A DNA stretch of 64,000 nt from Cenococcum geophilum (lineage: Eukaryota). The notes under the pieces are model-generated. The model was not told the DNA's origin and searched no databases. It worked only from the letters and a program-made list of their open reading frames with translations. Shown one piece after another: positions 29,876-64,000 of the stretch (the first letter of the stretch is position 1; each line of letters opens with the position of its first letter). The stretch spans positions 20,026,001-20,090,000 of the forward strand of contig CP158635.1 of NCBI GenBank assembly GCA_050273025.1, in the 5' to 3' direction. Both the position numbers and the translations under genes were made by a program.

Positions 29876-29924
29876 TTGATTCGATCTATTAATCGAATCG
29901 TTTATAGTGTTCGCTGGCTAGTCG

Positions 29925-30350: not shown

Positions 30351-30477
30351 TCTGCTGGCTGCCGTTCTAGTGCCTCCCTAGGTAGGGAGGATGTAAGGAG
30401 GGAAGGAAGGGTAAAAAATAAGGCGGCTACATAGGCAGAGACACGTGTAGACGCTATCGGGAATATAGCGGGGACCC

Positions 30478-31330: not shown

Positions 31331-31379
31331 TAAGTAATAAGACTATGTAAGATTATATAAGATTGCGTAATTGGCATAT

Positions 31380-32695: not shown

Positions 32696-32766
32696 TTAAG
32701 CCTCTTATTAAGTTCTTAATTTGCCACTAAATTCTCTTATTAAGTAGTTTTGCGTCTTTCTTATTA

Positions 32767-35700
32767 TGTAACGGAGCCTTATAGCAGGAACTACGGTAAA
32801 CTTGTTAATGGGCTAAGTATATAGGTATTGCAAGTAAGTTAATAACGTAATAATAACTGGTAGAGTGGTTGCCTAATAGATTAACTCTAATTATATTCTA
32901 AGAATTACTATAAGAAAGAAACTATCTAGGTAGGGATTAAGGGTCCTTAAATACATAACCGTACTCTTAAGAAAGTTATTACTCTATCTACTCTATCTAC
33001 TCTATTTGCTTTATTATAGATCTTATAGATTATATAGATTATATAGATTATATTATGTAACTCTACTTACTATTTCTTATTATATAGTTCTACGGGTTCC
33101 ATCCTAAACTATACTTATATTAACTAACTAGCTTCTTTTAACTCCTCTCTAAGTAGTTATAATATTATACTTAAAGCGTTTATAATATTATCTCCCTCCT
33201 TTTTATCTTCGTTCTTAAAGATACCTAGTATCTCTAAATTATTTACTAGAGGTATAATATCCGTCTAATTAATTTAGTTAATATTATTACTTATAATACC
33301 TAAAGCACCTTTTTCTTCTTTAACTCTTTATTATATATATATAGTCTCTTCTATATTATTACTTAGTAAAGTAATATTATCTCTATATTCTTATTACGCA
33401 AAAGAAGGGTTAGTCTATATTACGTTAGCAGGTCCTTTATTTTAATAACCCTCTTTTTATATAGAGTGCACTAAAGTAAATATTTAATTATTTTATAATA
33501 TTTGCTTAATTTCTAACGCTAAGTATATATATCCTATAACTCTTAATAGTCTCTAAGTTCCCTAAGTAATTTATTATAGGGTTTTATATTTAATCTGCTA
33601 CTATAAAGCTTAATAATAAGCTATCCTTAGCGCTACTTGCGGTCTAATATACCTTAGAAGAGTTTATATATATCCTTAAAGCTTAATATCTAGCTTATAC
33701 TTATCTTTAGCGTTTAAGATATATCTATAAAAAGGTTTATTTAAAGAAATAGAAACTTATTTAATAAGGTTTATAAAAACTTAGTAATAAAAGAATAGAT
33801 TTTCTTTTAATAGTAAAGGAAATAACTCTAAGTAGTTTAGCAGTTGCTCTTCCTAGGTCCCCCTTAGGTAACTTATTCTTTAGTAATTTCCCTTTATTAA
33901 TATTACCTAACCTTTTTTCTTTTAATACTTCTATACCTTTCCTATAGCGTTCTTTAGGTTCTCTAGTAGTTCCTAGGTAGTCTTATTATAGCCTATCTAC
34001 TTTACTTTATACTCTATTTTATTATCTATATCCTTATAACTAACGATCTTTAAAACTTACTATTTATCTTCCTTTTATCCTCTATATATATCTGCTTTAT
34101 AAACTAATAGCTTAACATTTTTATATACTAGCTCTAGCATTACAATATACTATATAGGGTAGATCTTTATTCTAGCTAGTAGATTTAACTTAAATATAAC
34201 TAATAAAAAATTTTATATAATTTTAAAAGGTCCTAGTCTAACATAGTCTAACTTCTTACTTAGTTATTAACTCTTAAAATTTTTATATAGTAACTATACT
34301 TTATCTCCCTCCTTAAGATCTAGTCCCTTAGATCTCTTAACATTATAATACTTTTTTATTCTTTACTATACTACCTTAGCTATTTCTATAAGGTCTATAT
34401 AAAGATTTATTAAACTCTTTATTCTTTACTTAGCTATACTATTTATCTTTTTTACTTAATATAGCGATAATAAGGTCCTTAGCTTATATCCGTAATTTGC
34501 CTTAAATAGTAACATACCTATTCCTTCTTATAGTATTATATTATATATAAATTATATAACTAGTAATAGTAATACCTAATTATTCTATATATAATTAATA
34601 TAATACCTTAAATACTATTCTAGTGTCTAATTTAATCTTTCTATTTAACCGTCTATCTATAGATAATATATAGTAAAAGTTACTACTTAAACTCCTTACT
34701 CTGCTAAAAATACTTCCTAAAATACTACTATAAATCTTAGATCTCTATTTAATATAATCTTACTTAGTGCTCTATATCTTATAAATACTTCTTTAATATA
34801 GATTCTAGTAATATCTTCTGCTAATATTTCTTCTAAATATGCTATAAAATATCCCTACTTTATAAGCTTATCTATTATTACTAAAATTATATTATAATCT
34901 TATCTGGTAATAGGGTCTCTTAACTTTAGTAACTTAATAATAAAGTCCTATAATATAACCTCCTATAGTCTCTCTAGTATTTTAATAGGTTATAGCTTTC
35001 TATATAGTTTATACCTCGTTAGTTTATTCCTTTAGTAATCTAGATATTCTTTTATAACTTACCTAGCTAGTTCCTAAATTCCATTAATAATATACTCTTT
35101 TTAAAGTCTTAACACTAAGCCTATAGCTCTATTATATCCTTAAGTTAGTCCTTTATAAAATAACTTAATAAACTCTTTTATAATAGCTCTTAGTATATAT
35201 ATTACTTCTTAATTTTTATACTACTTTAAGTCTAAATCCTCTATTTATACGTCTAGGATTTTTTATATTTAATTACGCTTTAATAATTTATAAATCTTCT
35301 CTTCTTATATTACTGTAATCTTTAAATAATTATACCTAATTAATCTATCTGTATCCCTTTGTAATAAAGCCCCTAATAGCTTTTTATCGTTTTATAGTTT
35401 AGCTTTTCTACTTAGAGTATTTACTTATGTATTCTCTATTCCCTTAATATACTAAATCTTAAAATAATATTCTATAAGCATCTCCGCCTATCTAACCTAT
35501 ATATAATTAAGTTCTTTTATTATTAGGAACCCTACTAAGTTCTTATAATTCGTCTTAACTATAAATAGTTTCTCTATACCTTATAAGAATAATCTCTATT
35601 TCTTTAGTACTATAACTATACCTAATAACTTCTTATTATAGATGTTATAGTTTAGTTCTAGTAGTATTATCTTTTAACTATAGTATACTACTAGGTACTA

Positions 35701-38700
35701 TCTATCTTTATATTTTTATAAAAAGCACGCTCCTAGTATATAGTCTAATATATCCATTTTAACTACTATTTCTAATTATAGCTAATAGATTTTAAGAACT
35801 AGCTCCTAGGTAAATAACCATTTAACCTTTTTAAATAGTTCCTTTTATTCCTCTTCTTATACCTATAGTTCTTTCTTCTTTATTAATCTTATAAATGGCT
35901 TAATATCCTTTAACTATTAAGCTATAAACTTTCTATAGTAGTTACAGAACCCTAAAAATAACCTTAACTATATTATATTTTCTAGTTCTTACCAATTTAC
36001 TATAACCTTAATCTTCTTTAAATCTATACTAAATTAGCCTAGTTTAATAATAAATCTAATAAAATCTATTTTCCTAGTAAAGAATTTATATTTCTTAATT
36101 ACTACTAGTATCTATTCTTCTTATAGTCTCTTTAAAACCCATTTAATATATTCTCTATATTCTTCCTTATTTATTAAGTAGATAATAATAATATTAAGGT
36201 ATACTATAACAAATTTATCCAAGTATTCTCTTAATATATTATTAATACGCTTTTAAAATATTATTAGTATGTTTATAAGCCTAAATTATATAACTAATAG
36301 TTTATATAGTCCTTCCTTTAACCTAAAGGCTACCTTTTATTTATTATCTTCCTTAATTCTAATTTAATAGTACGCCTATCTTAGATCTATCTTTATAAAG
36401 ATTTATATATTACTAATCCTATCTTAGATTTCGCTTATTAAGGGTAAAAAATACCTATCCTTTCTAGTAATGCTATTTAACTATCTATAGTTAATATATA
36501 GTCTAAGTTTTCTATTCTTCTTTAGTACGAATAGTACTAGATATCCCGCTAATAACTATAATAGTCTAATATATCCCTTTTAAAGGTTTTCTTAGACAAA
36601 CTTCTTAAGTACCTATAACTCTTTTTCTATTAACTTATAGGTTAGGTAAAACCTTAAACTTATTTCTAGTTCTAATTCTATCTTATAGTTCTATACTATA
36701 TAATCTAATAGCTTTTTACTTTTTAGTAACCATAGCTTCTTACTATATTTATAGTATCTCTTTAGTATATAACTTAATCCTTAATTAGTCTCCTTATATA
36801 TCGCTCTAACTTAATACTATACTAACTTAGTTTATTATTATATCTTATATTATTATATATCTTTAATATTAACCTAACCTATAACCTAATTAATCTTTAG
36901 ATTATATTCCTATAACTAAGGCATTCCTAATACTATCTTATTATTCCCTAATAGTAATATATTAAAAGACATCTTAACTTATCTTCCTTTAATGGTTATC
37001 TAAATAGGTCCTATTTTAAGATTAATAATACCTCCTCTATAGGCTATTAGATCTCCTAAAATTATTACTAATAAATAAGGGTGCTCCTTTTGCCTATATA
37101 GTAGTCCTATCCTTTTAACTGCTATTAATAAAATATAGTTTCGTATTACTCCACTATCTACTAATACTTTAAACTATTAATCTTACTAATTAACTTTTAA
37201 ATTTAGGTATTATTCTTAAATTCCTTTAAGGGTTTAAAGCTCTATTACTAGCTCCCTTTAGTTTTATAAGCCTCTACTTTTCCTAACTATTAGCTACTTA
37301 ATCCTTATACACTTAACTTACTCTTTAGCCAATATTTAGTCCACTTTTTATCTTTAATATACTATAGATAGGTATTCTCTAAACATTCCTACTATTATTA
37401 TCTATCTAGGCATTCTTCTATAAGGAATCTTTTTAGTTAAAGTATTAAGTTTTCTAACTCCTAAACTTCTACTAGATACTAGCTATATATATACTTAGTA
37501 TTTCTATACTATTACTTATCTAGCGCCTAATATATCCTTATAGGGTATTTCCAGTTTTTTATATTATAGATTTTTATAGATTTTATATATATTATCTATA
37601 TATGCAATCTATAATAGCGTATAGTATACTATATACTTTAGGTTAATTCTTAACTTATCTTTATTCTTAAGTTTAAACCTTTATTACGTTAATTTAAATA
37701 TTATAACTTTATTTGTAGGTACTAAGACGCATCTCTTACTTCTCTAGTCCTCTAATTATTCCTTTAAATCCTTTAATATTATAATTAAGGCTCCCTTAAT
37801 ATAATTTATCGCTTTTTCCGTAATTAGGTAGTCTTAGATAACTTTTTCGTCTAACTATATATAGAAATCTTCCCACTTATTATTATATCTTTACCTATAC
37901 CACTTCTAATATAGCTACTAGAGTATATATAGCTTATCTATAAGGAAGTATCTTCTTATTACTACGTTATAACAGCCTTTTATATATTATTCCTTAAACC
38001 TAATTAGAATCCCTAAATCCTCTTTATTTTTTAATTTAGTAAGCTACTTAGCTCTTAGTATACCTATTCTTAACCTATTAGTAATTCTTTATATAGGTAC
38101 TCTGTCCTTTATATAACCTAATATACTAGATTTTATATCTAGTTTCTTTTTTTATTATATAAGGATTTTTGCTCTAAACTTATTTATAGTTTCTTATTGT
38201 TTATATCTTATAATTAGATCCTTAAAGTTCTCTTACTTCTTAATTGCTATATTAACTTTTTAATCTTTAGGTTAAATACTATATTCGCCTAGTAAGTCTT
38301 TTAAGTCTATATATCTATCTCCTAATTTAACTACTGTTTATACTATAGATTCTTTAATCTATAGCGAAGTCTCTTACTTCTTTTTACGGGTGTCTTTATT
38401 CGTACTCTAAATTCTTAACCCCTTAAATTCTTTAACCCTAAGCTTACTTTTTTCTTAAGCTATACTTTAGCCTTAGTCTAACTAGGCTTTACTAGTGTCC
38501 TTATCTTATTTTAAGAGTCCTAAATCTCACTTATTTTGTCTTAAGAGTCTTATACCTTTAGGAAACTTTATCCTAAGCTTATTTATATATTACTAAACTA
38601 AGCTATTACTCTATTTTATTGGTTTTCGTCTATTATAGGTTCTTAAATATACCTTATCTTATCTTAAGAATCTTAGTTATCTCTTATCTCGTCTTAAAAA

Positions 38701-40772
38701 TCTTAAGCCTTTAGCCTTTTACCTTTATTAAGTAGTAAGCTAGCACTAGCAGTTATTTACTTGCTTAATTATCTCTAAATATTACTCCTTCCGTCTTATA
38801 AAGCAATGGATACCGTATCTAACGGTATTATAATACCTATTACTAAACCTTGCTCTATAGCGGTTTTAGTCTCTACCTCTATTATATTATTAAGGTTTAA
38901 ATACCCCTAGTTAGTTCCTTTACTATCCTTATTACTATTAATTAATAAGTACTTTAACTCTATTATTATTATTACTAATTATTATCTATATATTACTATA
39001 ATATCTTAATCTAGTTTATAGAGTTAATCTTATTCTTTATTTAACTCTTTAGTTCTTTTAAGTCCTTTTAACTCTAGCTCTTATAGCTAATAGCTTATAC
39101 TATACTTAGCGTCTTTATAAATTTAGTATGCGTTATTATAATAAAACGCAAAACTTCTAATTAAATACTCTTTTGTTCCTTATAGTATACTATTATCCCT
39201 CTATATATATATATTATATACTACTAGTCTAGTTCCCTTTACTACATAATAATTCTAACTACCTCTATAGTCTCTAATAAAACAACCCTATTTTCCGCAA
39301 TTTATATAAGCTCTATTTTTAAACTATTGCTTTTATTATAGAGTCCGCTTAAATATCTTCTACTACTAAGATCCTTAGTTTAGCCTATACTCCCTAGTCC
39401 TATAATTACTTAATTCTTAATTTTTAGGTTTCTATAGTTTCTTACTCCATCTTTTATAGGTTTCTTTAGTACTACTTAAGTCTATTAGCTCTACGCTATA
39501 CTATATTTTCTAATTTAGCTTAGGTTGTTATATACTTTATATCTTATATAACTATAGAACTCTATCCTAGCCCTTCTTAACCTATTCCCCTTGGTAGATC
39601 CTATTATTAATCTTTATTACTTAATCTATTAGTTCCCTTAGGGTATCTATATCTTCTATTAGGATAATTACGTCCTAGACTTTAACCTTAAGTCCCTATT
39701 TATACTATGCTATAAGCGCCTTATTATTCCACTTAACTTATATTACTAGCGTTTAGAACTGCGTTATATCTTAATTACTAAAGTTTATTATATAATGTTT
39801 TAGAGTTTTCTTTTTACTATAGTTATTACTTTTAAATCTTTAAACATTTATATAAGTCGCTCTATAAATCCGCCCTAGCTTAAGAACATAAACTATACCT
39901 CTTAGTTTATAGTTGTTATTCTATTTACTTATATCTCTATAAGGTAAGACTTAAACTATTTAAGTACTCTTTTTAATAAGAATAATCCTATATACGCTAC
40001 TTAATCCATAGGTATTAGTAGCTTAGCTCCTTTTTATAAAACCTTAAAGTATATTTACGTAAGGAATCCTTTAAACTTTAATTTTTTTCTAAAAATCTCT
40101 TAATTAATAGTAGCTTAATCTTTACTGCTTCTATCCTATTAATCCTATTTTTAAGTATCGTATTATCCCCTATTAGTTAATTAACTATCTCTTATAACTA
40201 TCCTACTGTCATAAGTTATTATAAGTTAGTGTTTACTATACTAGTGTTATTACCTAATCTTAAAGTAGTTGCCACCGTTAATAGCGTTATAGTAACTGCT
40301 TTTAGTGGTATATTATTTAACTTATTAAAACCGTAACTATGGTAGTAATTATATAACAAAGCCTTATAGTAGGAACTATGGTAGACTTATTAATAGGCTA
40401 GGTATATAGGTATTATAAATAAGTTAATAACGTAATAATAACTAGTAGAGTAGTTGCCTAATAGATTAACTCTAATTATATTTTAAGAATTACTATAAGG
40501 AAGGAACTATTTAGGTAGGGACTAAGGGTCCTTAAATACACAACCGTACTCCTAAGAAAGTCGTTGCTCTATCTGCTCTATCTACTCTATTCGCTCTATT
40601 ATAGATCTTATAGATTATATAGATTACACAGATTACATTACGTGACTTTGCTTACTATTTCTTATTATATGGTTCTACGGGTTCTATCCTGGACCGTGCT
40701 TATATTAACTAACTAGCTTCTTCTAACTCCTCTCTAAGTAGTTATAACATTGTACTTAAAGCGTTTGTAACA
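32767..40772 (-). mobile_element. Ty3/Gypsy chromovirus LTR retrotransposon, copy 2 (full length, RIP-inactivated)
   Basis: Reverse complement of the 20031-27833 family. TG...CA outer ends, ~421 bp LTRs (32767-33187, 40352-40772), perfect TSD TATTA. Confidence 0.95.
33296..33530 (+). pseudogene. RIP-mutated antisense ORF in the Gypsy 3' region with Zn2Cys6-like cysteine spacing (homologue at ~27070-27305, minus strand)
   Basis: Reversing C>T/G>A changes gives approximately MPKAPSSSSTL...VMPSPCSRCAKEGLVCV.LAGP...PSSCAECTKAN....CDV. Only one Cys codon (GAG TGC ACT) survives intact; the others are TAT/TAC. Confidence 0.55.
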
Positions 40773-46580: not shown

Positions 46581-47788
46581 AGTAAGTATATATCTCCTAA
46601 TCTATACGCGCTTACTAATTAGTATTAGTATAACTTTTATAATGTGTAGAATATATATATTATAATAATATGTACTATGCGGTGTTATAGATAGATGATT
46701 AATTCTCTAAGATCTACGCGTCGTAAGAGGTAAGGCTTGTCGCGTGTTCTCCTGTGACCTCTGTTAACCAATTACGATTTTCCATACCCGGCATAGAAAA
46801 TCGCCATTGGCTCGCTTACCACTAGCGCCTTAGCCGCCCTTACGATGTGTCTAATACTTTTAGCTACAGTAGTAATACTTATTAATTTTAATAAGGGCGT
46901 GTACTAAGATATTTCCTAGTATATAAATACTTATATATGTGAGAATAAATAAAGTATTTTCCGTAATATCTGTATTACGCGCTATAAACCAATTCTTTTA
47001 TATAAATTTTTACTAATTTATTATCTATATAAAATATAAAATATTTTATACGTTAGCTAAGTAGTAGAGTTTTTTTCTCTACTTCTTTTTTATTAAATTT
47101 ATAATCTATATATTACTTAACTTCTTTGGTACTGCGTAGGGTTTATAAATTAATTACTTTCTCCCCTTTTTAATTAATAATAATACTAAATTAGACGATT
47201 AAGATAATTCTATACTATAAGAGCCTCTAGCTAGTTAAAACTATATATATATATTTCCTATTAATGGGATAATCCAGTAGTTTAATTAACTATATTAACT
47301 CTAGTAGAGCTTAAACTATACCCTAGTTAATAAGCTTAAATATTAATTTTACTAGCTATAAGCTAACTATAGAGGCAGTAAAGCCGGATTAGTAGGATAT
47401 ATTAAAAAGAGCTTTATATTTAATTAAATCTAATATAGAAATAGAGCCTCCGGAGCCTTTACTACTAACTATTTTACTTATCTTTTTAAGCCCCTATAGG
47501 TATATAGGATGAATTTAGCTATATTTAAATACTATATTAGGTAAATTAAGGCTAAAATTTAATTAGGTAATATTAATATTTATATATAGGGGGGTGCTGC
47601 TAAAAAACCGCAATAAAATACCATAAAGTTTATACTAATTTCCTAATCGGGACAGCTAGTTGACAGCTTGACAGTCAGCGTACGTTATCCAACAGTCAGC
47701 GGACAGCGAGCGATCCAATTGACGCAGTCAGTCAGCTATTTTTCTCGAGCTCGCAGCTAAGCTGACTGTTGGACACACTGAAAGAGTC

Positions 47789-47815: not shown

Positions 47816-47835
47816 ATATATTCAATCACCCGATA

Positions 47836-48184
47836 ACGTGAGCGATAGGGTTATGACGGTCGGCATAGTTATGACGGTTTGGAACATCAAAACTGCGCAC
47901 AAACGAAATTTGTTAAGAACTTCCATAACTATACCGACTGTCATAACCCTATCACTCACGTTCGTTGTTTGCTATAATTACTTATGTACGGTTGGTGGCG
48001 ACTAAGTGAGATTAGATGCGCGTACTGAATTTAAAATTTTGGAGCGCTCGCCAAAGGGTGGTGCACTCGCTAAAAGGGGCAGTATTTTGGTGTTCCAAAC
48101 CATTCTCGCAGTAAGCCCAATTAGGAAGGCGGTAGTAGCCGACCGTCATAACTATGCCGACCGTCATAACCCTATCGCTCACGT
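47836..48184. mobile_element. 349 bp Fot1/pogo-type MITE
   Basis: TA TSD. Perfect 43 bp TIRs starting ACGTGAGCGATAGGGTTATGACGG. A third TIR copy lies inside at ~47924-47961. Confidence 0.88.
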
Positions 48185-48353
48185 TATATATACGCGTTAA
48201 ATTGAAGAAGTTGGACGATATTTGATAAAGTGGATGATTTAATGATTCGAGGGGAACAAGGGCAACCCCCCTGGACAGGAAACGGCCTGACTTGTCTCCA
48301 AAACTCACAGAATTACGCATTCCTAAACACACAGGTACCGCATCCCCTAGCTG

Positions 48354-49654
48354 CAGTGATGCAACTGGTTTAGTTCATTATTTAGTCTAGTTCGGTTTTC
48401 TAATAATTAAATCCTTAACCGGTTCGGAGCTTTAATTGGCTTAATCTAGATTAGTTTTAAAGCTTTAGCGGTAACTAAGTAACTAATAAAACTAGATCTA
48501 GATTAATATAGAACCTTAGTAGTAAGGATTTAGGTAGGGGCAAACGCCACTATAGAGAGCTAATCCTATTAAATCCATTATAATTCGCTATATAATTATT
48601 AAGCCGTATACTAAGGATCGTTTTATAGTATAGCAATATCTAATTAATCCGCTAAAGCTTTATAGATAAGCGGATTAATCCGTGGTGGTTAATCCTCGCC
48701 CTTATTACGTCACCCTTATTACTGCCCTTATCGCGTTATCCTTACTACTGCCCTCATCGCGTCATCCTTATTACTGCCCTTATCGCGTTGTCCTTACTAC
48801 TGCCCTTATTGCGTTATTCTTATTACTACCCTTATCGCGTCGTCCTTATTGCTACCTACATTACTACCCTCCTTATTTAATACTGTTAATCCTATAGATA
48901 GCTTTATTAATATCACTAGCCAATTATTGCGTAAAGGTAGTAGTAGCTATGCTAGTAGCAGTTATGCGGGCAAGGCTCCTACTATTCCTAAAAGGCGCAT
49001 TAGTAAAGCCTCTAATGGTAGAAAATGGAAGCGCCTAAAGATAACTATAAATATAACTAATCTAGAGTCTTTTACCTATTACAAATCTAAATCTAAATCC
49101 GAGCTAGAGCCTCTACTATTATGCTTGGCGGATAAGCTAAAACAAATTAAGCTTTTTAGGTAGTAGTACTAAAGAACTAATAAAATCGCTGGCTAAAAGC
49201 GTAGTAAAAAAAAGTTATCGTATATATAGGGTAACGGAAAAGGCTTTGTAATTATTTATAAGACTATAGGAGTTAAATACTACTACTGCTGTAAATGCTT
49301 AGACAAGAAGAAGGATACTATATATAAGCCGCTTAGTAAGAAACTCTACTCTATATACTGCCTATTTACTAATTATAATTAGCGCTTAACAGCAATTTTA
49401 CTATTCTTAGCTACTAGAAACAAACTTACTAAATTAATAATAAAGGCAATCCGATTAAGCCTAAAGGAATAATTAAGTAGTATGCTAAGCAGTAGGAGTA
49501 TATCTGGAATATTTAGTTTAAAGCCTTTAAGCTTTTACTAATTCGCTAGCTTATATACTACTATATTGCATACTACTAGATTAAAAACGTCTACTTTATT
49601 AAAATAATTTAGTATATATATAAAGGACTTATAAAGCTAATTCCGTCGCGTATA
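48354..49654 (+). mobile_element. 5' part of a RIP-mutated hAT transposon, cut by a later insertion
   Basis: CAGTG terminus, AATCC/GGATT subterminal repeats, BED-finger remnant (SYI*GNG...YYYCCKC) and FKLLLIR*LI...*IKNVYF...LIPSR, typical of the fungal hAT N-terminal region. Confidence 0.7.
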
Positions 49655-50869
49655 CATCAGGAAATTTTTTTTTAGGCACGTTATCGCAAGCGAAAATCGG
49701 GGTCTGCAAAACCAGCGTAAGTCGCGATTTTGGCAATTTGCGGCGATTTGCAGCAATTTGCTACAAATGTATAAGTAGCCTGTGCAAATTGCTGTAAATT
49801 GCCACAAATTGCCACAAATTGCCAAAATTGCCAGTTAAGCAGACCCTAATTTTCAGCTACTACAACATGCTTAAAAAAAAATCTTAATAGTAGAGGCTTT
49901 TAATACAGAGGCTTTTGGGTTAAACGCTTTTAATAGCTTTTATAGTTCGTAATTAAAGATCACATTAGTCACGAATTTAGTGCATAGTTGGACTGCAGAG
50001 CTTTAATATAAAGACCTCTGCTTAAGATCTAATGGAGTAGTTAATTATGATTTTAATTAGAAGCATTATATATTAAAAAAATTTGGTCACCTAATAACCA
50101 AGTTCCCGTGGCGCAGTAGTATCAAAGGCAGTAGAATTAAAGCAAGTACCCTACCCTAATTCAATATAATACGCGCGCAGGAAGAAAACATATATAGACG
50201 CCAAGACCTCCCCTTAGAGCCTCCCCTCTAGGGGGGGTGTCCCAGGGGAGGTAGTGCAGGCATAGTAGCAACGTCTCTAACGCGTCGTCCTGGCCACGTC
50301 GTTAATCACCCAGCTTGGACGACATAAAGGCTAACAAGTGCAAATCACGTAGGAACCAAAATTGACCTTTTTTAATATCGTAGAGCTCGATCGGAAACAA
50401 TTTTTAATGCAAGAACAGACGTCGTGCGATACGTCGTTGTAGAGCTGTGATTTTTTAAAGCTGTGAGAACGGGGTAGTTAATTTGGTTAAGGACGACAAT
50501 CGGGAGGCTCGGCGACAGCGCGATTGCCCAACAATAATACAATAGCTTAGCAATAATGCAATAGCTCGGTAATAACGTAATGGCTTAGCGATAATGTAAT
50601 AAGGCTCGGCACTAAGCTTAGGAGGAAGGAGAGGAATAAGAGGACTTTAGGATTGCTCGGCCGTTACAAGAAAGTAGTAATACTTGCGTGGTGTTAAGCT
50701 CAAAAATCCTATCTTAGGAGTTTAATCAACAGCCCCTACGTAAAACGTCAATAACGTTCAATTTTAAAGACTTAAATTGGTAGATCTTCCAGGAGCACCT
50801 ATTACGAAGAGCTCCAAGTATAAGATCTAGAATATTTAGTAGTGGTATAGGTATAAGGGTGGGTATTAA

Positions 50870-52500
50870 TTCGCGTTCCCAGACGTCGTTATATAACGCG
50901 ATTTTCTAGTACGGATCGCTAAGCTTATCTAAAGATAGATTATTCTTAATAGATTAGTTATAAAGGAAGCGGGTAGCGCTAAAGCCTTACTCTTTTATAA
51001 TCCGATTAAACACGTAGTAGTGAAATAAAGAGTGGCGGCCAAATTGTCCATCCTTATACTTAAGCATATACTTAGCGTACGCAGCCAGGGTAACCGTACG
51101 GCTTTATAGCGTATTAAAATCGGCCCTGCCATAAGGAAACAAAGTAGGAAAGGTACCTCGCATAATATAATTAGCTAATCGCTCCAAGAGGTATTTACCG
51201 CACAATAGGAACCTCTAAGCCCGCCTATAAGCATTACTAATAATAAACTTCGCGACTTAAAAGGTCCAACTTATTAAGATTAGGCACTAGATTAGGAACT
51301 AAAGTATCTAGTATATCGTCATTAAATTCGCCATCTAATATACTATTGCTAAGCCTAACAGGCTAAGGATTAATAGCACGAGTAGGATTGCCTATAGGAG
51401 CTAAAGTAGCTTACGATTTAGGAGGAAGGTAAGCCCTTAGGTTACTAAAGTTAGACTCTAAGTTATTAAAATGGGGAAGCTAATCCAATATAGAGCTATT
51501 TTTAGGTAAGTTAGTAAGCCGGCTACTATATATTTCAACGTCGCGATAATCCAAATAATTAATTTTTAAAAAGTAAAGCCACTGCTCTATAGTAGAGCGC
51601 CTTGCGGTATACTGCTTATAGAACCGCCAACTTAGGTATTTACTACCCTCTACCAAAGCAGGCCTCACGATTAGTATACTAAGTTCAGCAGGTAACTGTG
51701 GTAGTTATCTTTAAGTCTTTAGTATATTCTGACCAAAGCAAAAACGTACCTAGTATAGTGATGTTGCTAGCCTCATACACGCACGACTTACAGATAAATG
51801 TGTACGCGCGCTATTAGAAGCTCCTCTACCGCGGTAAGTATAGGTAAGAAGCTAGGAACAGGCCCTAGATTGAGCTTGTTGCTTTCACTAAATAGAAAGG
51901 GAAGTGCTAGATCCTTAAGGCTTTGGCGTCCTTAATATAGGCTTTATATACACCTATACTGTCACCCTCTATAGCTAGGCCTATTTAAAACCACCGCTCC
52001 TTACAACAACTGCATATCTCTATACATTTAGCCTATAGCGTACTCCTGAACTTCTTAATTCGTTCCTAATTAACAGCCAAAACGAGGCGTAGTATAGCCG
52101 GTGCCAGAGCTTACTACGAAAAAGGTGGTACTAGTACTAGAGTAGGTATTAGCGCTAAAGTAGGTATTGGAGCTAGTTCTAGTAAGGACGCATCTAGGCT
52201 CTCTTAAATACCCCTTCCACTATATAGAGCTTTATCTATATATAGCGGAGGAGTCGGCAAGTGAGCTTTATCCTGCTAATTAAGAATACGGTGCCCCTAT
52301 TATATTACCCTAATTACCTTCTACCGCCGAGCTATTTTAGGGGTATCTTAACTATTCTAGCCGCAAGGTAAGAAGGTATTCTTAGTATTAGTTTTAGGTG
52401 GAGCGTTTCGCTAGCGCTTCGCAGAATAAGTCTTAGTAGTAGAACCTAGCTCCGCCTAAGCTTTCCACTTATTTAAATCATATTTAGAGGCCTAGAAGAG
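50870..52500 (-). pseudogene. Helitron-type DUF6570 / Helitron_like_N fragment
   Basis: ICSCCKERWF, LPILTAVEELLIARVH, LPQLPAELSILIVRP, WLYFLKINYLDY, GTFPTLFPYGRADF, MLKYKDGQFGRH. Many TAA/TAG stops; no HUH or PIF1 motifs seen. Confidence 0.75.
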
Positions 52501-52899
52501 TAAATAGAAGTAGAATAATATATAGGGAAAACGCGCCTTTAACCGACACAACTGGTAGAGCTTTAAAAGCTTCTTTAAAGGGCCGTCTTTAACAATATTA
52601 AGGCGGGGCTTGCATATATAACACTTACTATATTTAATTATAGTAGGTTCCGCCACGTTTACAATATATATAATAGTATTAATAGAAATATTAATAAAAA
52701 GGAACGGTGTAATATTAAAATATTTTTAGGTTCGTTATATAGATTCTACTATAACTTACTATACGCAAGTTTTTTTAAGCCAATTAGAATCCTTAGCAAA
52801 GTTTAAAAATCTAGAGACCACTTATAAACTCGGGTCAATAACTAATATATAGGAAGTATAACCGTAGGGTTAGGCTAGTAAACCTCTCTTATTAAATAT

Positions 52900-53780
52900 A
52901 AAATTACCGCATATTACTAGGCATACTACCTAGTTCTTTAAGCGGCAAGTTAGCAGACTTCGTTATTAAGCACGAAATTGCCATATATTGCCTAGCATAT
53001 CGCCCAGTTCCTTAAACGGCAAGCTAATAGACTTCCATTACTAAGTAAAAGATTGCCGTATATTGCCTAGCATATTACCTAGTTCCTTAAGCAGCAAGCC
53101 AGCAAACTTCCATCACTAAGTGCGAAATTGCCATATATTACCTAGCATATCGCCTAGTTCCTTAAGCGGCAAGCTAGCGGACTTCCATCACTAAGCATAA
53201 AATTACCGTATATTGCTAGGTATATTACCTAATTCTTTAAATTACAAGCTAGCAGGCGTTGCCCATTAGTAGAGCATTCTAATATATTAGTTCGCATATT
53301 ACCCGGTTCCTCCATTACAAGCTAGCAGACTTATTACATTAAGTTAATAGGTGTCGCTTATTAATAGAGCACTGTAATATATCCAGTTGCTTGTTACCTA
53401 GTTCCTATATCGTAAGCCAGTAGGCATCGCTTATTAATAAAGCACTATAATATATTAGCTTGCGCATTACCCGGTTCTTTAAATAGCAAAACAGTAAACT
53501 TCTCTCATTAATAAAATAATTGCGGCATATTGCCGACACACTACCCTATTCCACAAAAAAAAGTCCAGTATATACCTTCCATTAACCGTAAGACTGTAGT
53601 ATATCGCCAAGAACATTACTTACTACAATTCCACTAAAAAAACACCAGTATATTCCTTCCATTAGCCATAATACTGCGGTATATTACCCACTATATTACC
53701 TAATTCTCAAAACAATAGCCTAGTATACTTCTTCCACTAGACAAGACTTTGCGGCAAATTGCCTAGCATATTACCTAATT
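52900..53780. repeat. Degenerate tandem array, ~75 bp unit (GCGGCAAGCTAGCAGACTTCC...AAATTGCC...CAGTTCCTTAA)
   Basis: Unit starts at ~52943, 53017, 53092 and 53167; more divergent copies follow. Confidence 0.85.
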
Positions 53781-53799
53781 CTGCGCTAGAAATCTTAAA

Positions 53800-56700
53800 A
53801 ATACCTCGCTACTACAATCTAGAGCACTTCCACTAGCTACTCCTTTAAACTCCCCGGCTTATTTATATCTACGTTTAGTATCTTATCCGCGGCGGTCTTC
53901 TTAAACTTATACTTATTTAGAATTCCAATCTTAATATAGGAAGCCGTATTACACAGAATATATACTATTATAAGAGGATTTTCTTAGCCAATTTGGTAGA
54001 TGCGGTATATAAACTATTACTATTTACTAAAGGACGGATTAAGCTCTATAAGCACAATAAAGTATACCTCATTAAGAGTAATACCCTCCGCAATAGCCTT
54101 TAGGGATAAAAAAAGAATCCATAGCCCGCTTAGCTGCCTCCACAAGTTATTAATTATGCTGTTCTTTTGCTTTAGTAGTGTTCCTCTAGGAAGGTATACA
54201 ACGGCATCCTCGCTATATTTAGCAACCAAGGCCTAAAACAAGTATTAGCTTAGAGTTCTAGTTAAGCAAGCTGCTATTAAGAGGTAAATATAGAGTGTTT
54301 TATCACTTACTGCCATATATACCGCCCTAATAGTTAGGAAATTAGTGCCAATAACAACCTTGCTATAATACCCCCCGACGTTTTTTAATTATATAACTTC
54401 TTCACAGATAACTAAAAGCGCCTCAAACTTTGCGTCGCCGTAAAGAATTTCCTCCTTATTTTTATCTAAGATGCTTCTAATAGGAGATTTAATTAATTTT
54501 GCGTGAAATTTTGCTTATATGTCGATTTTGTTAATATCTACTAGATCCTTATTATATTTATCCCTCTATAAAAGTAACCCGGGCATTATCGCTGTAATAT
54601 AGCACGTAAAGTAGGTGCTTAAGGAGCTGCTAGCTATACGTACTGGTTATTTCCCCTTAGGAGAACCATCTTCTTTCCATTCGACCATTTTCTATAGAAA
54701 TACTTCTTCTATTTCTAATACTATTGCACCTTCTATAGCCTATAGCAATTCAATTTCTTTAGTTCTATACTTATAGTTTAGGTAGTAAATGCGGAGCTCG
54801 CCCAAAATAACTTTTAATTTTTTTCCGTCAAAGCCGATAGTATTCGAGGTACGGCGAATTTTAAAGTGCATAAGTATTTCTCCACCAACCTAAACCGATT
54901 CTTTATATACCGTAGACTACAAGACCCCTTTAGGGTTGCTCTTTCCTTATTTTAAAAAATAACTCTATAGCTTTGCCATTTTTTCGACTTCGACAGGCGT
55001 GCATTTTTTAAAAATGCTATTATCTTTAGCGTTTACCCAATCTAGATCTATAAGGCCACTTATAATATACCAACATATATTTATAACACTATTCTCCATT
55101 AGAGTCCCTAATATAGCCTAGGCAAAGAATCTAAGGTATTTCGGTACAGTACTTTTATAGAAACGAAGAAATTAGTTAACTATAGTCTCTTTATTCTTCT
55201 CGTTATAAAACTTATCCTATAAAATCCTACTAAAAAACGTGGTCTTAACTAACTGCTGACCTTTATCTTCCTACTTACCGCTAAATAAGAAGCAATAGAC
55301 ACGTCTAGTAATTATAAAGTTGTCAATAACACGCTGTTTTAGGCATTTAGATATTATAATTATAACAAATCTTATTACCAAGGCAGCTGGGGTACTAACT
55401 AAAGAATTACCCTTTCTAGGTAGTAGGACACTGTTAGAGAACCATAGGTAAGGAGTCTTTACTTTATCTATAAGAGTCTAACTAGCATTTAAAGTATTAT
55501 AGGCGGTCTAGTTTCCTAACATTCCTATTTCTAGCCACTTGTCCTAAGTCGGTCGCTCTATGCCCGGAGAAATATCCGCCGTTAAATAGCACATTGCAAC
55601 TCTTAGCGGTGCCTGCGCTTACGTTATAAGTAGTAAGTCTTTAAATAATAAGTTATAATTATCTCTCTAGGCAGTAATAATATGTGGAACTATAACAACT
55701 AGGCTAGCACTATACTATTTACGTATCTTAGATATAGGGTTGCAATTTACGCACAAGCATAGTAGAGGTATTTTATCTTAGCTAGGACACTCAGCGTTAC
55801 TAGTCTAGTGGCCCTCCAGTAGATATTAAGTAGCATTTCCAGCCGCTTAATTAGTAGCCACTTTATCCAGGTTTATAGCATAGTAGTAATTAAGAATAAT
55901 AGTTAAGTATGCGGTTACTGTCTTGCCGGTCCCTATACCATTTATAAAAACCCTACTATTTAGCTCTATGCGTTCCTAGTAGAATATCTTAGATACACTA
56001 TATAGCTAGTATAGGAACGCCCTAAACTTCAGATTTAGACCCTATTTACGGGGAATAGGGACCATATTATTTCCTAGGAGGGCCCCTTTAGAAACCCCCC
56101 ATAGCTTAGCTAAGCGTTTATACATCTACTACTCTATTCTCTTAACCTTACCGCCTACTTTTACTATAGCGGCTTCTTAAAATCTAAAAAAAGTTAACGT
56201 TAGTCTAATTTAAGATATACTCCATATACTTATATATCCATACCTTTCCTTAATACAATTAGCAGCCTCTACCTCCCTATTAGCTTCGTTTATTATATTT
56301 TTAAGGGCCTCTTCTTTTAGGTTGTTATCTTCTGCAGAAACCTATATAGTATTACTAACCAGATCGTCTACGATTACACTCCGTAGTTAGGCTGGTTTAG
56401 AATCTAGAGCGGTTGCGCTTTAAAGAGTATTATAATTATCTTCGTTCTCCTTTATACTATTAGGACCCCCTACAGGCTAGATAGCTAGACCACCGCGGCC
56501 GTCCTCGGTAGCTTACCGCAATTTACCTTTAGATGCTCTAGCAGGTTACTCCCTTTTATAACTACGTTTCTTCTAACCTAATAGACTTAGAATGCTGCTA
56601 TACGCTAATAAGGTTAATAAAGCATTACTCTTACTTTCGGCGTCTTTATTAACAAACTCATTATCTAAGTACTCTAAGTGCTTACGGGTCTGCTTAGACG

Positions 56701-57600
56701 CAGTCTTCCGCCGTTTCTTATATATGGGCTTACCGCGCAAAGACTAGCGAATTAGTGTATCGGTAATGCTAGGAGGGTTTATACTCTGCTTGCGCGGTAT
56801 TTAATACGGTATTTCTGCAATTAAATGCTCAGCTACAATTGTTAGTATATAAATAGCCAGATATTATTAATAAAACTTACAATCGGTACTCTTAAGTAGA
56901 AATTCCACTTTACTTTTATAGTATAGTATACATCGCTAAAATACGGCTTATAATACTCCTTGCCAGGCAATATAAGCTTCCTCTTTAGATTTAATATTAA
57001 CCCATATAATTTAACCTTTATTTAAGTTAAAGCCTACTAATGCTATAACCTCTTAAAATAGCAAGAAACGGATTTCTTTAACTATAGGAGTTTCTATATT
57101 GGCTTCTATAATATTATAGATTATATAAAGCTCTATAGTGTTTTAAGTGGTTAAATTAATCTATTAAAATTAGAAGGTTATATTTTTAAGCAAAAGCGGC
57201 TTACCTAATAGTATAGGACCTAGTGATTTTAAGATTTACTTAGGAGCAAATATAAGTACTAGCGTTACTATAGGTTCCAATTAGGTGGGAGTCTAACTTC
57301 TAGGTTTAGACTTTGCCTTTTTTTACTATTTTATAGCATTAGTTCTCTAGGATGTTATTAAAGCAATAATAGCATCTTTAGACTAGCTATCTAAAACACC
57401 TTCTACCTTAGGCAAGCTACTAAGAATCTTTTAAATAAACTTATCGCGTAGCAGTTTATCTCCGGTAGTACGAAACATAACTTTATTAAGCCCAGCCTTT
57501 ATTATACCATCTAAGAGTATATTCTTAATTTCCTTAAGGCGATGAGTATTAATATCCTATCCCTTTATAATATCCAAGTCCTTTATAGTAACGCGTAAAG
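53800..57600 (-). pseudogene. SNF2-family helicase/ATPase, copy A (RIP-inactivated)
   Basis: Walker A VFINGIGTGKT (~55930). Motif II RIL*DKFYNEKN (DEFH after reversing RIP, ~55210). Motif III ILGTLMEN (SGTPMEN). IRRT. Motif V SLKAIAEGITL and motif VI FIYRIYQIG. Intron at ~56185-56243. 5' limit approximate. Confidence 0.8.
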
Positions 57601-57949
57601 ATACTAAGATGGAATAAAGGAGTAGAGCGTTACTATATAAGAGCGGAAGAATCTAGTTAGTGTTTAGTGAAGGTACAAGTCTAAAGTAGGTAGGGAAGAC
57701 AAACCAATTATAAGAGTTAATTAACCAGGCAAATTGCCGCAGTTTTGGGGAGTAAGTTACAGCTTAAAGTAGCAATTAGTGGTTAAACTAATTAATTAAC
57801 TAATTAATGCCGCGTAGAGGTACCGTGTAAGAGTTAGTTAAGGTAGTAAAGGTAAAGAGTGTAAGGCAAAGTAATAGCAAAGTTAGGAAGATTACCGCTA
57901 TCTAATGCTTATTAATGGCAAGGTAAATTAAGAAGTTCTAGTAAATACG

Positions 57950-59050
57950 CAGAATGCCAAGTCTAGCGGCATTTTGCAGTAGATTACCTTAGGTAGTATA
58001 AGTCTTATATAGTTATAATCTTTAGGATTTAAAAACTAAACTAACTTATTAGTTTATTAAACTTTATAAATCCTACCTAGACTACTAATATAAAAAGGTA
58101 ATAACTTAGCTAAGTATAGAATGCACGTATTGTTTTTAATTATTTTATAATAGGAGACTAGGTATAGCTAATTAAGCCTTTACTATAGCCTCCTTTAAGC
58201 CCTCTACCGCCCTTAATTAATCCTCTATATTAAACAGCCGCTAGTTAAACCGTTTAACCACTTATAGCACTTAATACACCTCATTTAGCATATAGTACGT
58301 CCTCCCTTATAACCTTAAGCTAATTCTTTACTAAAAGCTCTTAAAACATTACCTTTCTCTAATTTATATTATTATGCGCTTCGGTTAATTGCGAATATAG
58401 TTTTATAACCTTAGAGATGGTCCTACTTTATTACTTAGGCGTCCCAGATTAGATTAGCAATAGATATATTTTAAGCCTTCTTAGCTTTTTAAAGTTCCTT
58501 AATTTCCATCTTTAAACTCTTAATATTCTAGCAATTAGCAGCTAACGCAGTCTACAAAGCATCCTACCCCTCCTTTATACTACTAATTGTCTAACTTGCA
58601 ATATTAGAGAAATTCCTCTTTTATAGTCTTCTAGTTTCTATAACAGCCGTCTCCGCGGCGCTATTTTTATTTAACTTGGTTCTCTCTAGACTATATACGG
58701 CGGCATTTCTAGCGACTAATAGGACAGAATAGGTTAGCGGAGGCTTCTTAACAGGTGGCTGGGCTATCTTTATAGCTTCAACTACCTTACTATTCTTCTC
58801 CTACTTAATTAGAAATCCTCCAATCTCCTTTTAGCAACTATCCGCCGCCTTCTTCTTTCGCGGCTTTAGACCTAGCTTAGTAGTCCCATCTCCGTTCTTT
58901 AGTAACGCCTTTTTAATATAGGGACGCTTAGTGCGCTTAGCTAGGGTGGCTACATACCTAGGGTTTTCATTTATCTGTAATAACCAATCAGCGTAAGATA
59001 TCTATAACTACTCACTAGCATATATACTATTGCGACGTTCACTTTAAAAA
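57950..59050 (-). pseudogene. RIP-mutated hypothetical Lys-rich/coiled-coil gene
   Basis: One long frame interrupted only by TAA/TAG stops (e.g. KPRKKKAADS, NIKSLKMEIKEL*KAKKA). No family recognised. Confidence 0.45.
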
Positions 59051-59149
59051 TAGGTTAAGTTAAGGGGAAATTGGTTCTAATGCAGAGAGTAGGTAATAAA
59101 TAGATAGATAGTGTTTAGCAGTAAGATCTAAGAGGGAAGCTTATCCTTA

Positions 59150-60250
59150 TTAACGTTAAGAACGCGTATAAAGCGGATAGGTAGTAGTAATTCGGGCGAG
59201 GACTCCAATAGAGGATTTTCTTATATAATCGGCAGCTGGTTAATAGAGGAAGGGTAGAAACCTATAGTTATAATATTATATATTACGACTTTTTACCCAA
59301 CTTCCTTAAATATATCTATATATATATAGGTAGTAGCCTTCTACAGCATTTTATCGGCATCGCAATATTAACGCGTTTTAATAAGGCTTACTAATAAAAT
59401 CACACTAGCTAGGGTGCCCGTAGTATGCTAACCTAAATAGGAGCGCCCAAAGCGCCTAATATAAAAAGTCTCTTTTACCAGACAAAGGGATATAGAGCTT
59501 AAAGCTCCTTATTTAAACCTAAAGGGACTATTCGGTTGCAAATCGCCTCTATTATAACTATTTAATCTATACGCCTTTTAGTGTCACCCGTTTTATAATT
59601 AGTGGCGGCTACTATAGCTTATTTAAATCTGTAATAGAGTTAATTGTTTAGTAAGGCTCTAGAATAAGGCTCCAGATTTAACTTCGTATATTAATACGTA
59701 ATTAACTAACGTCGGTAAGCGATTCAAATAAGCCCCTCTCTACCACCAGGCCTCTATCGCAACTCCCTACTTTAGTATAGTAATAGAGCCTCCTCCTCGG
59801 CCAACGTCCTCTCTATAATCGGCGTTTCCTATATCTTTACCCACCTCCTATACAAGCACCCCCCAAAAATAAGCTCATCGCGATTACAAAGGTTAAGATA
59901 ATAATATTATATAAGGCATGCAAATGCGACTATAGTATCGCAATTGAGGCATATAGAGTCGCCATATTATAAGAAGTCGTTACTTTAGCGCGTATATAAG
60001 AGCTCTAGATTAAAATGGAATATAGAATAAGAGCTTAAAGCTATATATTAAAATAGTGCCAAGAACCTCATTTTAACTACTATAATCTAAAACGAGCTAT
60101 ATACCAGTATAAAGAGAACAGCAGCAAAATAAGCGGGGGTTCTAGATTTTATAGCTAATGCGCCCCTTAATAGGCACCAAGTTAGTAACAAAGCTCCAGG
60201 AGTTACTAATTAGCCTTATATTAAGCACGGAGTTATAAAGAATCTATTCT
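59150..60250 (-). pseudogene. RIP-mutated hypothetical gene
   Basis: Coding-like frame (ICLNCDTIVAFACL...RDELIFGGCLYRRWV...IERTLAEEEALL) with RIP-type stops and a likely intron donor at ~59432. No family recognised. Confidence 0.35.
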
Positions 60251-60399
60251 TTCTCAGCCGTATTTTAAATTAGGTATAGATCTAGAGCTCTAAGAGCTAT
60301 ATTAACTTCACATTTACTCCGCTCCACTAATTAAATAGTTAGATCTAAAGTCTACATTAATTATAACTCCGGCTAGGAGCTCTAATCTAACAAGATTAC

Positions 60400-61370
60400 T
60401 GCCTTAAAGAGCAAGCCAGTAGACTTTAATCACTAAGCGCGAAATTGCCGCATATTGTCTAGCACACGCCCAGTTCCTTAAGCGGCAGGCTAGCAAACTT
60501 CCATCAGTAAGCAAGAAATTGCCGCACATTACCTGGCACATTGCCCAATTCTTTAAGCGGCAAGCTAGCAGACTTCCATTACTGAGCGCGAAATTGCCAT
60601 ACATTGCCTAGCATACCGCCCAGTTCTTTAAGCGGTAAGCTAGCAGACTTCTATCACTAAGTACAAAGTTGCCGTATATTACTAGGCACATTACCCAATT
60701 CTTTAAATTACAAGCTAGCAGGCGTCGCCCATTAGCAGAGTATTCTAACACATTAGCTCGCATATTGTCCGGTTCCTATGTCGCAAGCTAGTAGACTTAC
60801 CATATTAACAGAACACCACAACACATCGCCTAGCGCATTACTTGGGTCCTTAAATAGTAAGCCAGTAGGCGTCTCTTATTAGTAAAGCATTATAATATAT
60901 CCGATCGTGCGTTACCCGGTTCCTATATCATAAGTTAATAGGCTCCTCTTATAAGCAGAGTATTCCAAATATTGGCTCGCATATTGCCTGGTTCCCGCGT
61001 CGCAAGCTAGCGGCTTCTTTTATTAACAGAGCACTACGATATATTACTCGCGCATTGCCCTCCTTAAATAGCAAAATAGTACCTTTTCTTATTAATAAAA
61101 GAATTACGGCATATTGCCGACATATCGCCCAGTTCCACAAAAAAAAACTTAGCATATGCCTTCTATTAACCGTAAGACTACGGCATATCACCAAGTATAT
61201 TACTTAATTCTATAAAAAAAAACAATCTAGCATTTATCTTTTACTAACTATAAGACTGCGGAATACTGCCTACTATATTACCTAATTCTAAAAATAATAG
61301 TCTGTTATACTTCTTCCGCTAGAGAAGAATTTACAGCAAACTACCTAGCATATTACCCAATTCCGCGCTA
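60400..61370. repeat. Second copy of the ~75 bp tandem array
   Basis: Same unit as 52900-53780 (starts ~60483, 60558, 60632). Confidence 0.85.
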
Positions 61371-61379
61371 AAAGGATTA

Positions 61380-64000
61380 AAACTTTATCGCTACTATAAT
61401 CTATAACATTTACATTAGCTACTTCTTTAAATTTTCCAGCTTATTCGTGTCTACGTCTAGTCTCTTATTAGCAGCGTTTTTCTTAAACTTAAGCTTATCT
61501 AGAATTCCACTTTTAATACAGGAAGCCATTAATAGTAACACCCTCCGCAATAGCCGTTAGAAATAATAAGAGAATTTATAGCCCGCTTAGCTGCTTCCAC
61601 AAGTTATAAATTATATAGTCTTTTTGCTTCAGTAGTATTCCTCCAAGGAGGTATATAACGGCATCCTTACTATATTTAGCAACTAAGGCCTAAAATAAGT
61701 GTTAGCTTAGAGTTCCAGTTAAGTATACTGCTATTAAGAGGTAAAAAGATAGAGTATTTTGCCACTTACTGCTATATATACTGCCCTAATAATTAAAAAA
61801 TTAGTACTAATAATAAATTTACTACAATAGCCTTTAATATATAGCGCTGCTATAGCTGCTATAACTTCTTTATAGATAGCTAAAAGCGTCTTAAAACTTC
61901 GCGTTGTTATAAAGAATTTCCTCCTTATTCTAATCCAAGATACTTCTAATAGGATTTTTAACTATATTAGTGTGGTATTAGACTAGACATTTATTTTTTT
62001 TTATTATCCGGAAGATCCTTATTAAATCTATCCTTCTATAAAAGTAACCCAGGCGTCATTACTATATTATAGCATATAAAGTAGCTGCTTAAGGAGCTGC
62101 TAGCTATTTATACTAGTTTTTTCCCAGTAGAAGAACTATCTTCTCTCCATTCAACCATTTTTTACTAAAATACCTCTTCTATTTCTAACACTATTGCACC
62201 TTCTATACTATATAGAAATTTAAGTTCTTTAGTTTTATAATTACACTTTATATATTAAATTTGGAGCTCGCCTAGAACAACTTTTAGTTTTTGGTCATTA
62301 AAGCCAATAGTATCCCAGTTACGGCGAATAAGAAAATTCATAAGAATTAGGCCACTAACCTTAACCAATTCTTTATATGTCGTAGACTGCGAGGCACTTT
62401 TAGGGTTACTCCTTCCCTGCTTTAAAAATTAGGTCCATAGTTTAGCTATTTTATTAACTTCCACGGACGTGCATTTTCTAAAAATGCTAGGGTTAGCTTA
62501 AGCGGTTGCCCAATCTATATCTTTAAGGGCGCTTATAATAAATTAGCATATATCTATAACACCATTCTCTATTACTGTGCTAGAGCTTAGGCAAAGAATC
62601 TTAGGTATAGAGGTACCCCCATTTTTTTTTAAGAGCGAAGGAATTAGTTAATATAAATTTCTTAATTTTTTTTTATTATAAAACTTATCCTATAAGATTC
62701 TGCTAAAGAGCGTAGTTACAACGGTCTATATACCTCTATAGGGGGCCGTTAAAGAACTATAAGCAGGGCGTTTTCTTTTTACCTATAAGAGTCTAACTAT
62801 TATTCATTACATCGTAATCTAACTAGTCCCCTAAAGTCCCCATTTAAAGCCATTCCTAAGGGTTTAGTCGCGCCATTTCTTTATACACACCTTCTATCTT
62901 ATAGGACATTGCAAACCGTAGTAGCGTCTACTCTTTTATTATAAGCGTAGAGTCCTTAAATAATAAGATATAATTATCTCTCTAGCCAGTAATCACACTT
63001 AGAATTATAATGACTAGATTTACACTATGCTATCTTTATATTATAGATATAGCGTTTTAGTTTATATATAAGTATAAAAAAGGCATCTTGTCCTAGCTAG
63101 GATACTCGGTATCTTTAGCCTAGTTATTCTCCTATAGATACTAATTCGTATTCCCAGCTACTTAATTAGCAGCCACTTCGTCTAGGTTTATAGCAGAGTA
63201 ATAACTAAGGACAATAGTTAAGTACGCGGTTATAATTTTTCCGGTTCCTACACTATTAGCAAAAACCCTACCGTTTAGTTAGTGCGCTCCTAGTAGAATA
63301 TCTTAGATACGCTATACAGCTAGTATGGGAATAATTTAAACCTTAGATTTAGACCCCATTTACTAAAAATGGGGACCAGGTTCTTCGCTAAGACGGCCTT
63401 TTTAGAAACTCTGTATAGCTTAGCCAAACATTTATACATCTATTACTCTATTTATTAAACCTTACCTCCTGCTTTGGCTATAGCGGCCTCTTAAAATCTA
63501 AAAAGAGCTAATATTAGTCTAATTCAAGATATACTCCATATAACTATATGCTTATACCTTTACGCAATAGGCATTATAGCCTATATCTCCTTAGCTTAAG
63601 TTATATTATCCTTAAGCGCATTTTTACCTAAGGTATCTTTAATCGCATTAATTTCTATAGTTTTACTAAGGAAAGCTTTTATGGGTATAAAGTTTAATTA
63701 TTATATAGAGTCTAAGCTAATTAGGGATATAAAGTAGTTTTGCTCTTAGGAGTATCGCAATTATTTTTACCGTGCTCTATATCGTTAGGATTATCCATAG
63801 GCTAGATAACTAGATTATTGCGGCTGTTCCTAGCAGCTTGCCGTAGCTTACCACAGTTTGCCGTAGTTTGCCCATAGATACCTCTAGTAGGTTGCTCCCT
63901 TTTATAATTACGTTTCTTCGGACTTAATAAACTTAGAATACCACTATGTGTTAATAAGATGGATAAAGCATTACTCTTATTCTCGCTATCTTTATTAATA
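61380..64000 (-). pseudogene. SNF2-family helicase/ATPase, copy B (diverged paralogue, partial, internal deletions)
   Basis: Collinear with copy A: VFANSVGTGK (~63250), RIL*DKFYNKK (~62685), LIRRN, same intron position (~63500-63557). The motif VI segment is missing at ~61530. Confidence 0.8.

Follow-up and report, generated by a model that had tools for sequence, protein, structure and literature searches.

What kind of mobile element has inserted into a hAT-like transposon in a 64,000-bp stretch of Cenococcum geophilum DNA (contig C1, 20026001-20090000; hereafter the window), and were the genes that it carries of any use to it? An initial annotation of the window had proposed a single large, cargo-carrying DNA transposon that fitted no standard description. 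We lengthened the window by 70 kb, continuing its numbering beyond 64,000 (extended positions), and searched the whole genome (178 Mb, 7 contigs). The insertion very probably belongs to an ascomycete family of PlavakaB-type cut-and-paste transposons that measure 21-25 kb, in a copy inactivated by repeat-induced point mutation (RIP).

The full element measures 24,176 bp and has the termini CATCAGG…CCTGATG. Its left 14 kb lie in the window (49655-64000) and its right end is located 9.8 kb past the window edge. The host is a hAT-like transposon on the plus strand. In its 5' part (48352-49654) the frame halts at ...LIPSR, where the initial annotation had placed a CATC-ended insertion, and is followed by TA and CATCAGGAAATT at 49655; the junction reads ...CCGTCGCGTATA and then CATCAGGAAATTTTTTTT. 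The right terminus and the rest of the hAT frame, both predicted to lie downstream, were located there: the terminus ...AAAAAAATTTCCTAATA, a RIP form of TTTCCTGATG, lies at extended 73830 and is followed by TA, and the host resumes at 73831-75621. The 2-bp target-site duplication TA occupies 49653-49654 (plus strand) and extended 73831-73832. On contig C2 we find the corresponding empty site, with both flanks joined by a single TA. The match of this host-repeat copy runs over 48352-49646 and resumes at extended 73828-75621, and the reading frame of the uninterrupted hAT copy continues across the joint. Pfam detects Dimer_Tnp_hAT in the continuation with an E-value of 0.0084 here and 7e-05 in the intact copy.

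The left-end module (49655-49889, plus strand) consists of the outer terminal inverted repeat (TIR) CATCAGGAAATTTTTTTT, a subterminal stretch that is palindromic, and an inner inverted TIR whose last position is 49889. Subterminal repeats and the right TIR occupy extended 73330-73830.

Just outside the window lies the mobilizing enzyme that Pfam analysis of the open reading frames (ORFs) was expected to reveal, a Plavaka transposase (extended 66600-69830, plus strand). With stops read as X, the Pfam family Plavaka (PF18759) is matched in two frames with E-values of 1.6e-21 and 4.3e-16. These two exons both exceed the family cut-off of 26.3 bits and flank a GT..AG intron near 67790-67840. Intact transposases align with a RIP-aware consensus of the copies over ~1100 residues spanning both exons, with E-values down to 7e-126. 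The transposase of copy C5 contains CIMC, which fits the C(2)C motif that follows the second D and which we take to be that motif. The residues presumed to form the CMCT acidic triad are partly retained, the first D in 7/12 copies and the last E in 8/12, with RIP-type changes in the remainder. The H(3-4)H region is RIP-damaged, making the placement of that motif uncertain.

In a quick tree of 32 sequences picked from 86 matches, built without labelled PlavakaA/B proteins, the transposase falls in a clade of 15 (support of 100 in the Shimodaira–Hasegawa-like approximate likelihood ratio test) with ascomycete Plavakas, among them proteins from Ciborinia, Polychaeton, and Parastagonospora, including those of P. 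nodorum; the 17 basidiomycete sequences stand apart. At least three families of Plavaka occur in this genome. One transposase of another family (locus L108, C7:7210032-7212713) has 14 stops in 2.7 kb, far fewer than the other listed copies.

Both ends were read in 12 copies, six from a 24-25-kb subfamily and six from a 21-kb family, in which the left-end module is a 168-bp version. The termini CATCA..TGATG recur in the copies, together with the RIP variants CATTA/TATTA. A 2-bp target duplication is present in 11/12 copies (TA in 7, AA in 2, TT and AT in 1 each). A TA-specific target was rejected given the AA, TT, and AT duplications, and RIP may also inflate the count of TA. By its termini and 2-bp duplication, the element would fit the PlavakaB type. 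The initial annotation is right about a DNA transposon with TIRs but not about an unfamiliar element: PF18759, the termini, and the duplication match the Plavaka elements already described.

Five other copies are colinear with the element across most or all of its 24 kb, at 86-92% identity, and at least 37 loci have long matches to 57900-60350 (40 places scored among 570 candidates). The window itself is AT-rich with a positive RIP index from ~19,500 on, the first 19 kb being neither. Over 24 kb, copies C1 and C7 are separated by 2171 transitions, with 0 transversions. This is the general pattern: copies of one subfamily differ almost solely by transitions, while 0.8-1.1% transversions separate the subfamilies. 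At the onset of RIP the copies were thus almost identical to one another. The initial annotation had described a block that was both RIP-mutated and multicopy, as these data confirm, and its proposal of one large transposon is upheld by the paired termini, the target duplications, and the empty site.

Two observations weigh against this identification. An open transposase was found in none of the copies read, every one of which is RIP-dead, and copy C7 is flanked by AG/CT and has no matching duplication. Its two flanks match one repeat with ~50 bp unaccounted for, which suggests a deletion of ~50 bp. We also note three loci (C2:14473801, C1:1213888, and C6:11161523) that share positions 58331-59110 alone, at 84-85%. 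Two of them sit 8-10 kb from Plavaka matches outside the family of the giant element, hinting at module exchange between families.

The cargo in the window was said to comprise, in order, SNF2-B, an unknown gene, a coiled-coil gene, SNF2-A, and DUF6570, each in minus-strand orientation, and we find the same arrangement. SNF2-A (53830-57620, ~1250 codons) is a divergent gene with a GT..AG intron near 54240-54310, an N-terminal family domain at 57289-57592, and a reading frame stopped by RIP. Its paralog SNF2-B occupies 61490-64000 in the window, with a 5' part reaching to about extended 65200. Between them lie two frameshifted coding remnants (57900-60390), the former coiled-coil and unknown genes. 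Two ~75-bp tandem repeat arrays are located at 52872-53800 (copy A, subterminal in the 21-kb family) and 60402-61300 (copy B). Beyond the window, an ORF that we call the N-domain ORF lies on the minus strand (extended 65340-66480), and a DUF6532 gene region with a further frame lies on the plus strand (extended 70700-73270; DUF6532 at 71774-72196).

Pfam analysis of 18 read-through frames of the window part gave DUF6570 as the sole match; the SNF2 domains were not detected in this damaged copy, and the coiled-coil and unknown frames matched no Pfam family. With SNF2-A as query, neither a word-indexed homolog search nor a PDB sequence search returned any match. A phmmer search with 53900-56002 over all representatives recovered 62 proteins, including long ones at 20-31% identity, and Helicase_C and/or SNF2-rel_dom is present in 16 of the 17 homologs scanned. 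Species names were obtained for 4 of the 10 homologs looked up (Bipolaris, Lindgomyces, Plenodomus, and Kalmusia). Intact Dothideomycete homologs with SNF2-rel_dom and Helicase_C match SNF2-A in a single frame (E-value 1e-63) and SNF2-B only in shifting frames. The motifs GTGKT and DEFH (Walker A and DExH) are legible in SNF2-A across the copies. In addition, the model of homolog P0013 (pLDDT, predicted local distance difference test, of 76) matches Mot1, CSB, Sth1, and Chd1 with E-values of about 1e-16. Homologs, motifs, and predicted fold thus point to a SNF2-family ATPase gene, and the phmmer homologs and motifs bear out the earlier recognition of two SNF2 genes.

The SNF2-A and SNF2-B units form a tandem duplication of 7.3-7.5 kb, with 70-78% identity in DNA and 48-61% in protein over long segments. 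At just 48-61% protein identity, this duplication is old. A profile of the N-terminal domain of the homologs matches the start of SNF2-A and also a separate frame at extended 65956-66277.

To compare the genes, we counted indels common to 2-10 of the 12 copies and not a multiple of three in length. SNF2-B contains 18 in 3.7 kb, whereas the exons of SNF2-A contain 0, of the two found in SNF2-A, one being intronic and the other sitting at the upstream edge of the gene (P 2e-6 for the contrast). Such indels number 4 and 9 in the two remnants at 58-60 kb and 2 in the 741-bp frame after the transposase. The transposase, the N-domain ORF, the DUF6532 region, and the last frame have 0. SNF2-B would thus have been frameshifted before the family amplified. 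It is reasonably likely, in our judgment, that three genes (SNF2-A, the N-domain ORF, and DUF6532) functioned as accessories during the spread of the family, with SNF2-B and the 58-60-kb remnants already dead. More tentatively, the SNF2 motor could move nucleosomes or bound proteins on the DNA of the element, aiding transposition or countering silencing.

Several results weigh against functional cargo. Some of the 18 indels in SNF2-B lie side by side and could represent one event counted twice. Of the transversions that separate the subfamilies in SNF2-A, 13/72 are synonymous, where 17% is expected (P 0.48), and their density, 16-22 per kb, exceeds the 6.5 of the dead SNF2-B. In the transposase 9/32 are synonymous (P 0.08). 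No excess at third codon positions was found in any of the eight regions tested, and, with no synonymous excess in SNF2-A, selection at the amino-acid level lacks support. A metagenome locus scan with P0012 produced 26 pattern matches and 0 confirmed SNF2-Plavaka loci, and a P0187 search added no information on this linkage. In a second SNF2 family of this genome, 1 of 35 loci is near a listed Plavaka match, as judged by eye with 123 of 266 Plavaka candidates scored.

The alternative that these results favor keeps the same transposon and regards the SNF2 genes as inert captured DNA, in the manner of Pack-CACTA elements, with the contrast in frames due to chance or to recombination between subfamilies. 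The neutral appearance of SNF2-A substitutions agrees with it, as does the fact that SNF2-B, the 58-60-kb remnants, and the Helitron piece described below are plainly dead and yet carried; the uneven transversion density points to a mosaic history. We nevertheless consider it rather unlikely, as SNF2-A has 0 exonic frameshifts with 74 transversions in 4 kb, compared with 18 and 24 in SNF2-B. In addition, the closest intact homologs of SNF2-A are patchily distributed, with several copies in Bipolaris maydis, and the genome has another multicopy SNF2 family, which is diverged and reads in a single long frame. On our reading, SNF2-A kept its frame between subfamilies while changing fast, a pattern that passive carriage with a mosaic history could also produce.

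The second SNF2 family comprises 35 loci (for example, C1:3535133-3539080 and C3:17363708-17367646), is 33-40% identical to P0012, and reads in one frame of ~1320 codons. One of its loci lies 9 kb from a Plavaka match, in divergent orientation.

The putative Helitron fragment of the initial annotation, with DUF6570 on the minus strand, is a nested insertion of one subfamily and not a core gene. This Helitron-like element (49890-52841, minus strand) has its 5' end at 52841 and an internal deletion with a joint near 50905/50919. It includes the DUF6570 match (51516-51904, minus strand), a domain that we presume to be tied to Helitrons. The piece is confined to the 24-kb subfamily and absent from 6/6 copies of the 21-kb family, where the 168-bp end module directly abuts the sequence at 52842. 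Some 30 other loci match 50919-52500 at 75-80%. One longer free copy matches 49954-50905 and 50919-52702 in two stretches separated by 8.5 kb, showing that the insert is internally deleted. When 13 free copies are aligned, most stop sharply at GGTCAATAA, like the insert at 52841. On the other side the homology ends at the inner inverted TIR, within a run of repeats that continues in a free copy. Cutting at the inner TIR probably removed the 3' end.

A Starship-like or Helitron-driven giant element would account for the large size, the multigene cargo, and the Helitron-associated DUF6570. The hallmark of Starships is a DUF3435 tyrosine recombinase as first gene, and no DUF3435 or tyrosine-recombinase domain was matched by Pfam in the frames scanned, which cover the 24-kb element except for the plus strand at 52900-57800 and 60500-65200 and the minus strand at 64000-65200 and 66800-69800. 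Given also the TIRs, the 2-bp duplication, the loss of the middle of the Helitron part, its absence from the 21-kb copies, and a Plavaka gene with paired TIRs that already explains mobility, this origin is highly improbable. Equally remote is a chance pile of unrelated repeats without common mobility: the Helitron piece has its own boundaries and distribution and several copies hold further nested insertions, but the same two ends and gene order recur in 12 copies at unrelated positions, 11 of them flanked by a target duplication of their own, and the empty site is exactly restored. This view is refuted for all but the Helitron piece.

Elements of the CMCT group rely on a DDE transposase, which makes its cuts at the TIRs and inserts the element with a 2-bp stagger. 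The whole 21-25-kb unit encodes its own Plavaka transposase and has moved to many sites, landing here in a hAT element, with SNF2-A, the N-domain ORF, and DUF6532 probably active as accessories as the family spread. The Helitron passenger inserted beside the inner TIR of one lineage and then lost its middle and 3' end. RIP inactivated the near-identical copies.

A small non-autonomous partner of the giant element had been proposed at 29192-31730. This 2.5-kb CATC-ended element is real, separate, and TA-flanked, but its ends differ from those of the giant, and it was rejected as a direct partner on that basis. BLASTN between the two yields no match as long as 25 bp, and the smaller element was probably moved by another Plavaka family. 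The true partners, found elsewhere, are ~2.1-kb elements whose two ends match those of the giant (82% over 204 bp and 79% over 117 bp). The 29192-31730 element shares their internal tandem arrays (72-81%), not their ends. One partner (L129:495-3100) is inserted in another giant copy, at the position matching 57884 of the window, and a non-autonomous copy at L136:545-2674 is flanked by TG/GA with no 2-bp duplication. A stand-alone miniature inverted-repeat transposable element (MITE) as donor of the left end is unsupported: the 230-bp module is joined to a longer non-autonomous element in 6/6 loci, and an exact pattern search gave one match, which is one of these six.

Elsewhere in the window, a small element with 46-bp perfect inverted ends (47833-48187) lies directly upstream of the hAT copy and may be a MITE. 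Two opposite-facing long terminal repeat (LTR)-type repeats of 7.8-8 kb (20031-27833 and 32763-40772), ~91% alike, form a large inverted pair, and a 256-bp direct repeat (28799-29054 and 46623-46880) has 90% identity.

Several relatives have been described. PlavakaB elements have CATCA..TGATG termini and 2-3-bp duplications (Kojima 2025, PMC12730594), and the PlavakaB-1_GyCo consensus in the supplement of that paper is 24,396 nt long. The present element resembles them in termini, 2-bp duplication, Plavaka transposase, and ~24-kb size. However, PlavakaB is described from Agaricomycotina with TET/JBP cargo, the term SNF2 occurring 0 times in the main text (PMC12730594), whereas our element has a transposase of an ascomycete clade with SNF2-type, N-domain, and DUF6532 genes. 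TET/JBP cargo gave no Pfam match here in the frames scanned, where RIP damage hides even the SNF2 domains. The 17-19-kb Plavaka families of the red alga Bostrychia are likewise large, with tandem arrays and conserved accessory genes proposed to act on chromatin, but SNF2 is not among the accessory genes reported, which encode a methylase-SET protein and a ParB/2OG-oxygenase protein (bioRxiv 10.1101/2025.02.11.637652). Plavaka in the Chinese white truffle shares an ascomycete host and 2-bp duplications, but is reported with CATAC termini and no mention of cargo (PMC12581995).

X3X3R8 of Stagonospora (Parastagonospora) nodorum is a 26-kb, RIP-mutated repeat termed an endogenous gene cluster (Hane and Oliver 2010, PMC3017866). 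Compared by description only, it is alike in layout, in that a tandem pair of Rad5/SNF2-like helicase units precedes a block in the opposite orientation. Unlike our element, it includes a ubiquitin-conjugating enzyme, and its description mentions neither a transposase nor termini. We raise as a speculative possibility an ascomycete lineage of giant Plavaka elements in which a fast-evolving SNF2 motor and a small N-domain protein serve as chromatin-opening or defending parts, with X3X3R8 as an unrecognized member. The available text of the literature on SNF2 with fungal DNA transposons, X3X3R8, and Parastagonospora Plavaka does not describe SNF2 as Plavaka cargo, in a search outside which Iyer et al. 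(2014) and Repbase fell. SNF2 cargo in Plavaka thus appears to be new; earlier publications cover this kind of transposon, its size, and its occurrence in ascomycetes.

Judged from sequence, frame retention suggests a function for the cargo, and its difference between two paralogs of the same element gives an initial hint, from sequence, of SNF2 function, for which intact homologs exist. If SNF2 is a working part, a cut-and-paste element carries its own ATP-driven chromatin motor. This would be a counter-silencing tool unlike the TET/JBP and SET/methylase cargo known in Plavaka. The element also serves as a caution that transposon genes may lie behind multicopy "Rad5/SNF2-like" gene models of Dothideomycete genomes.

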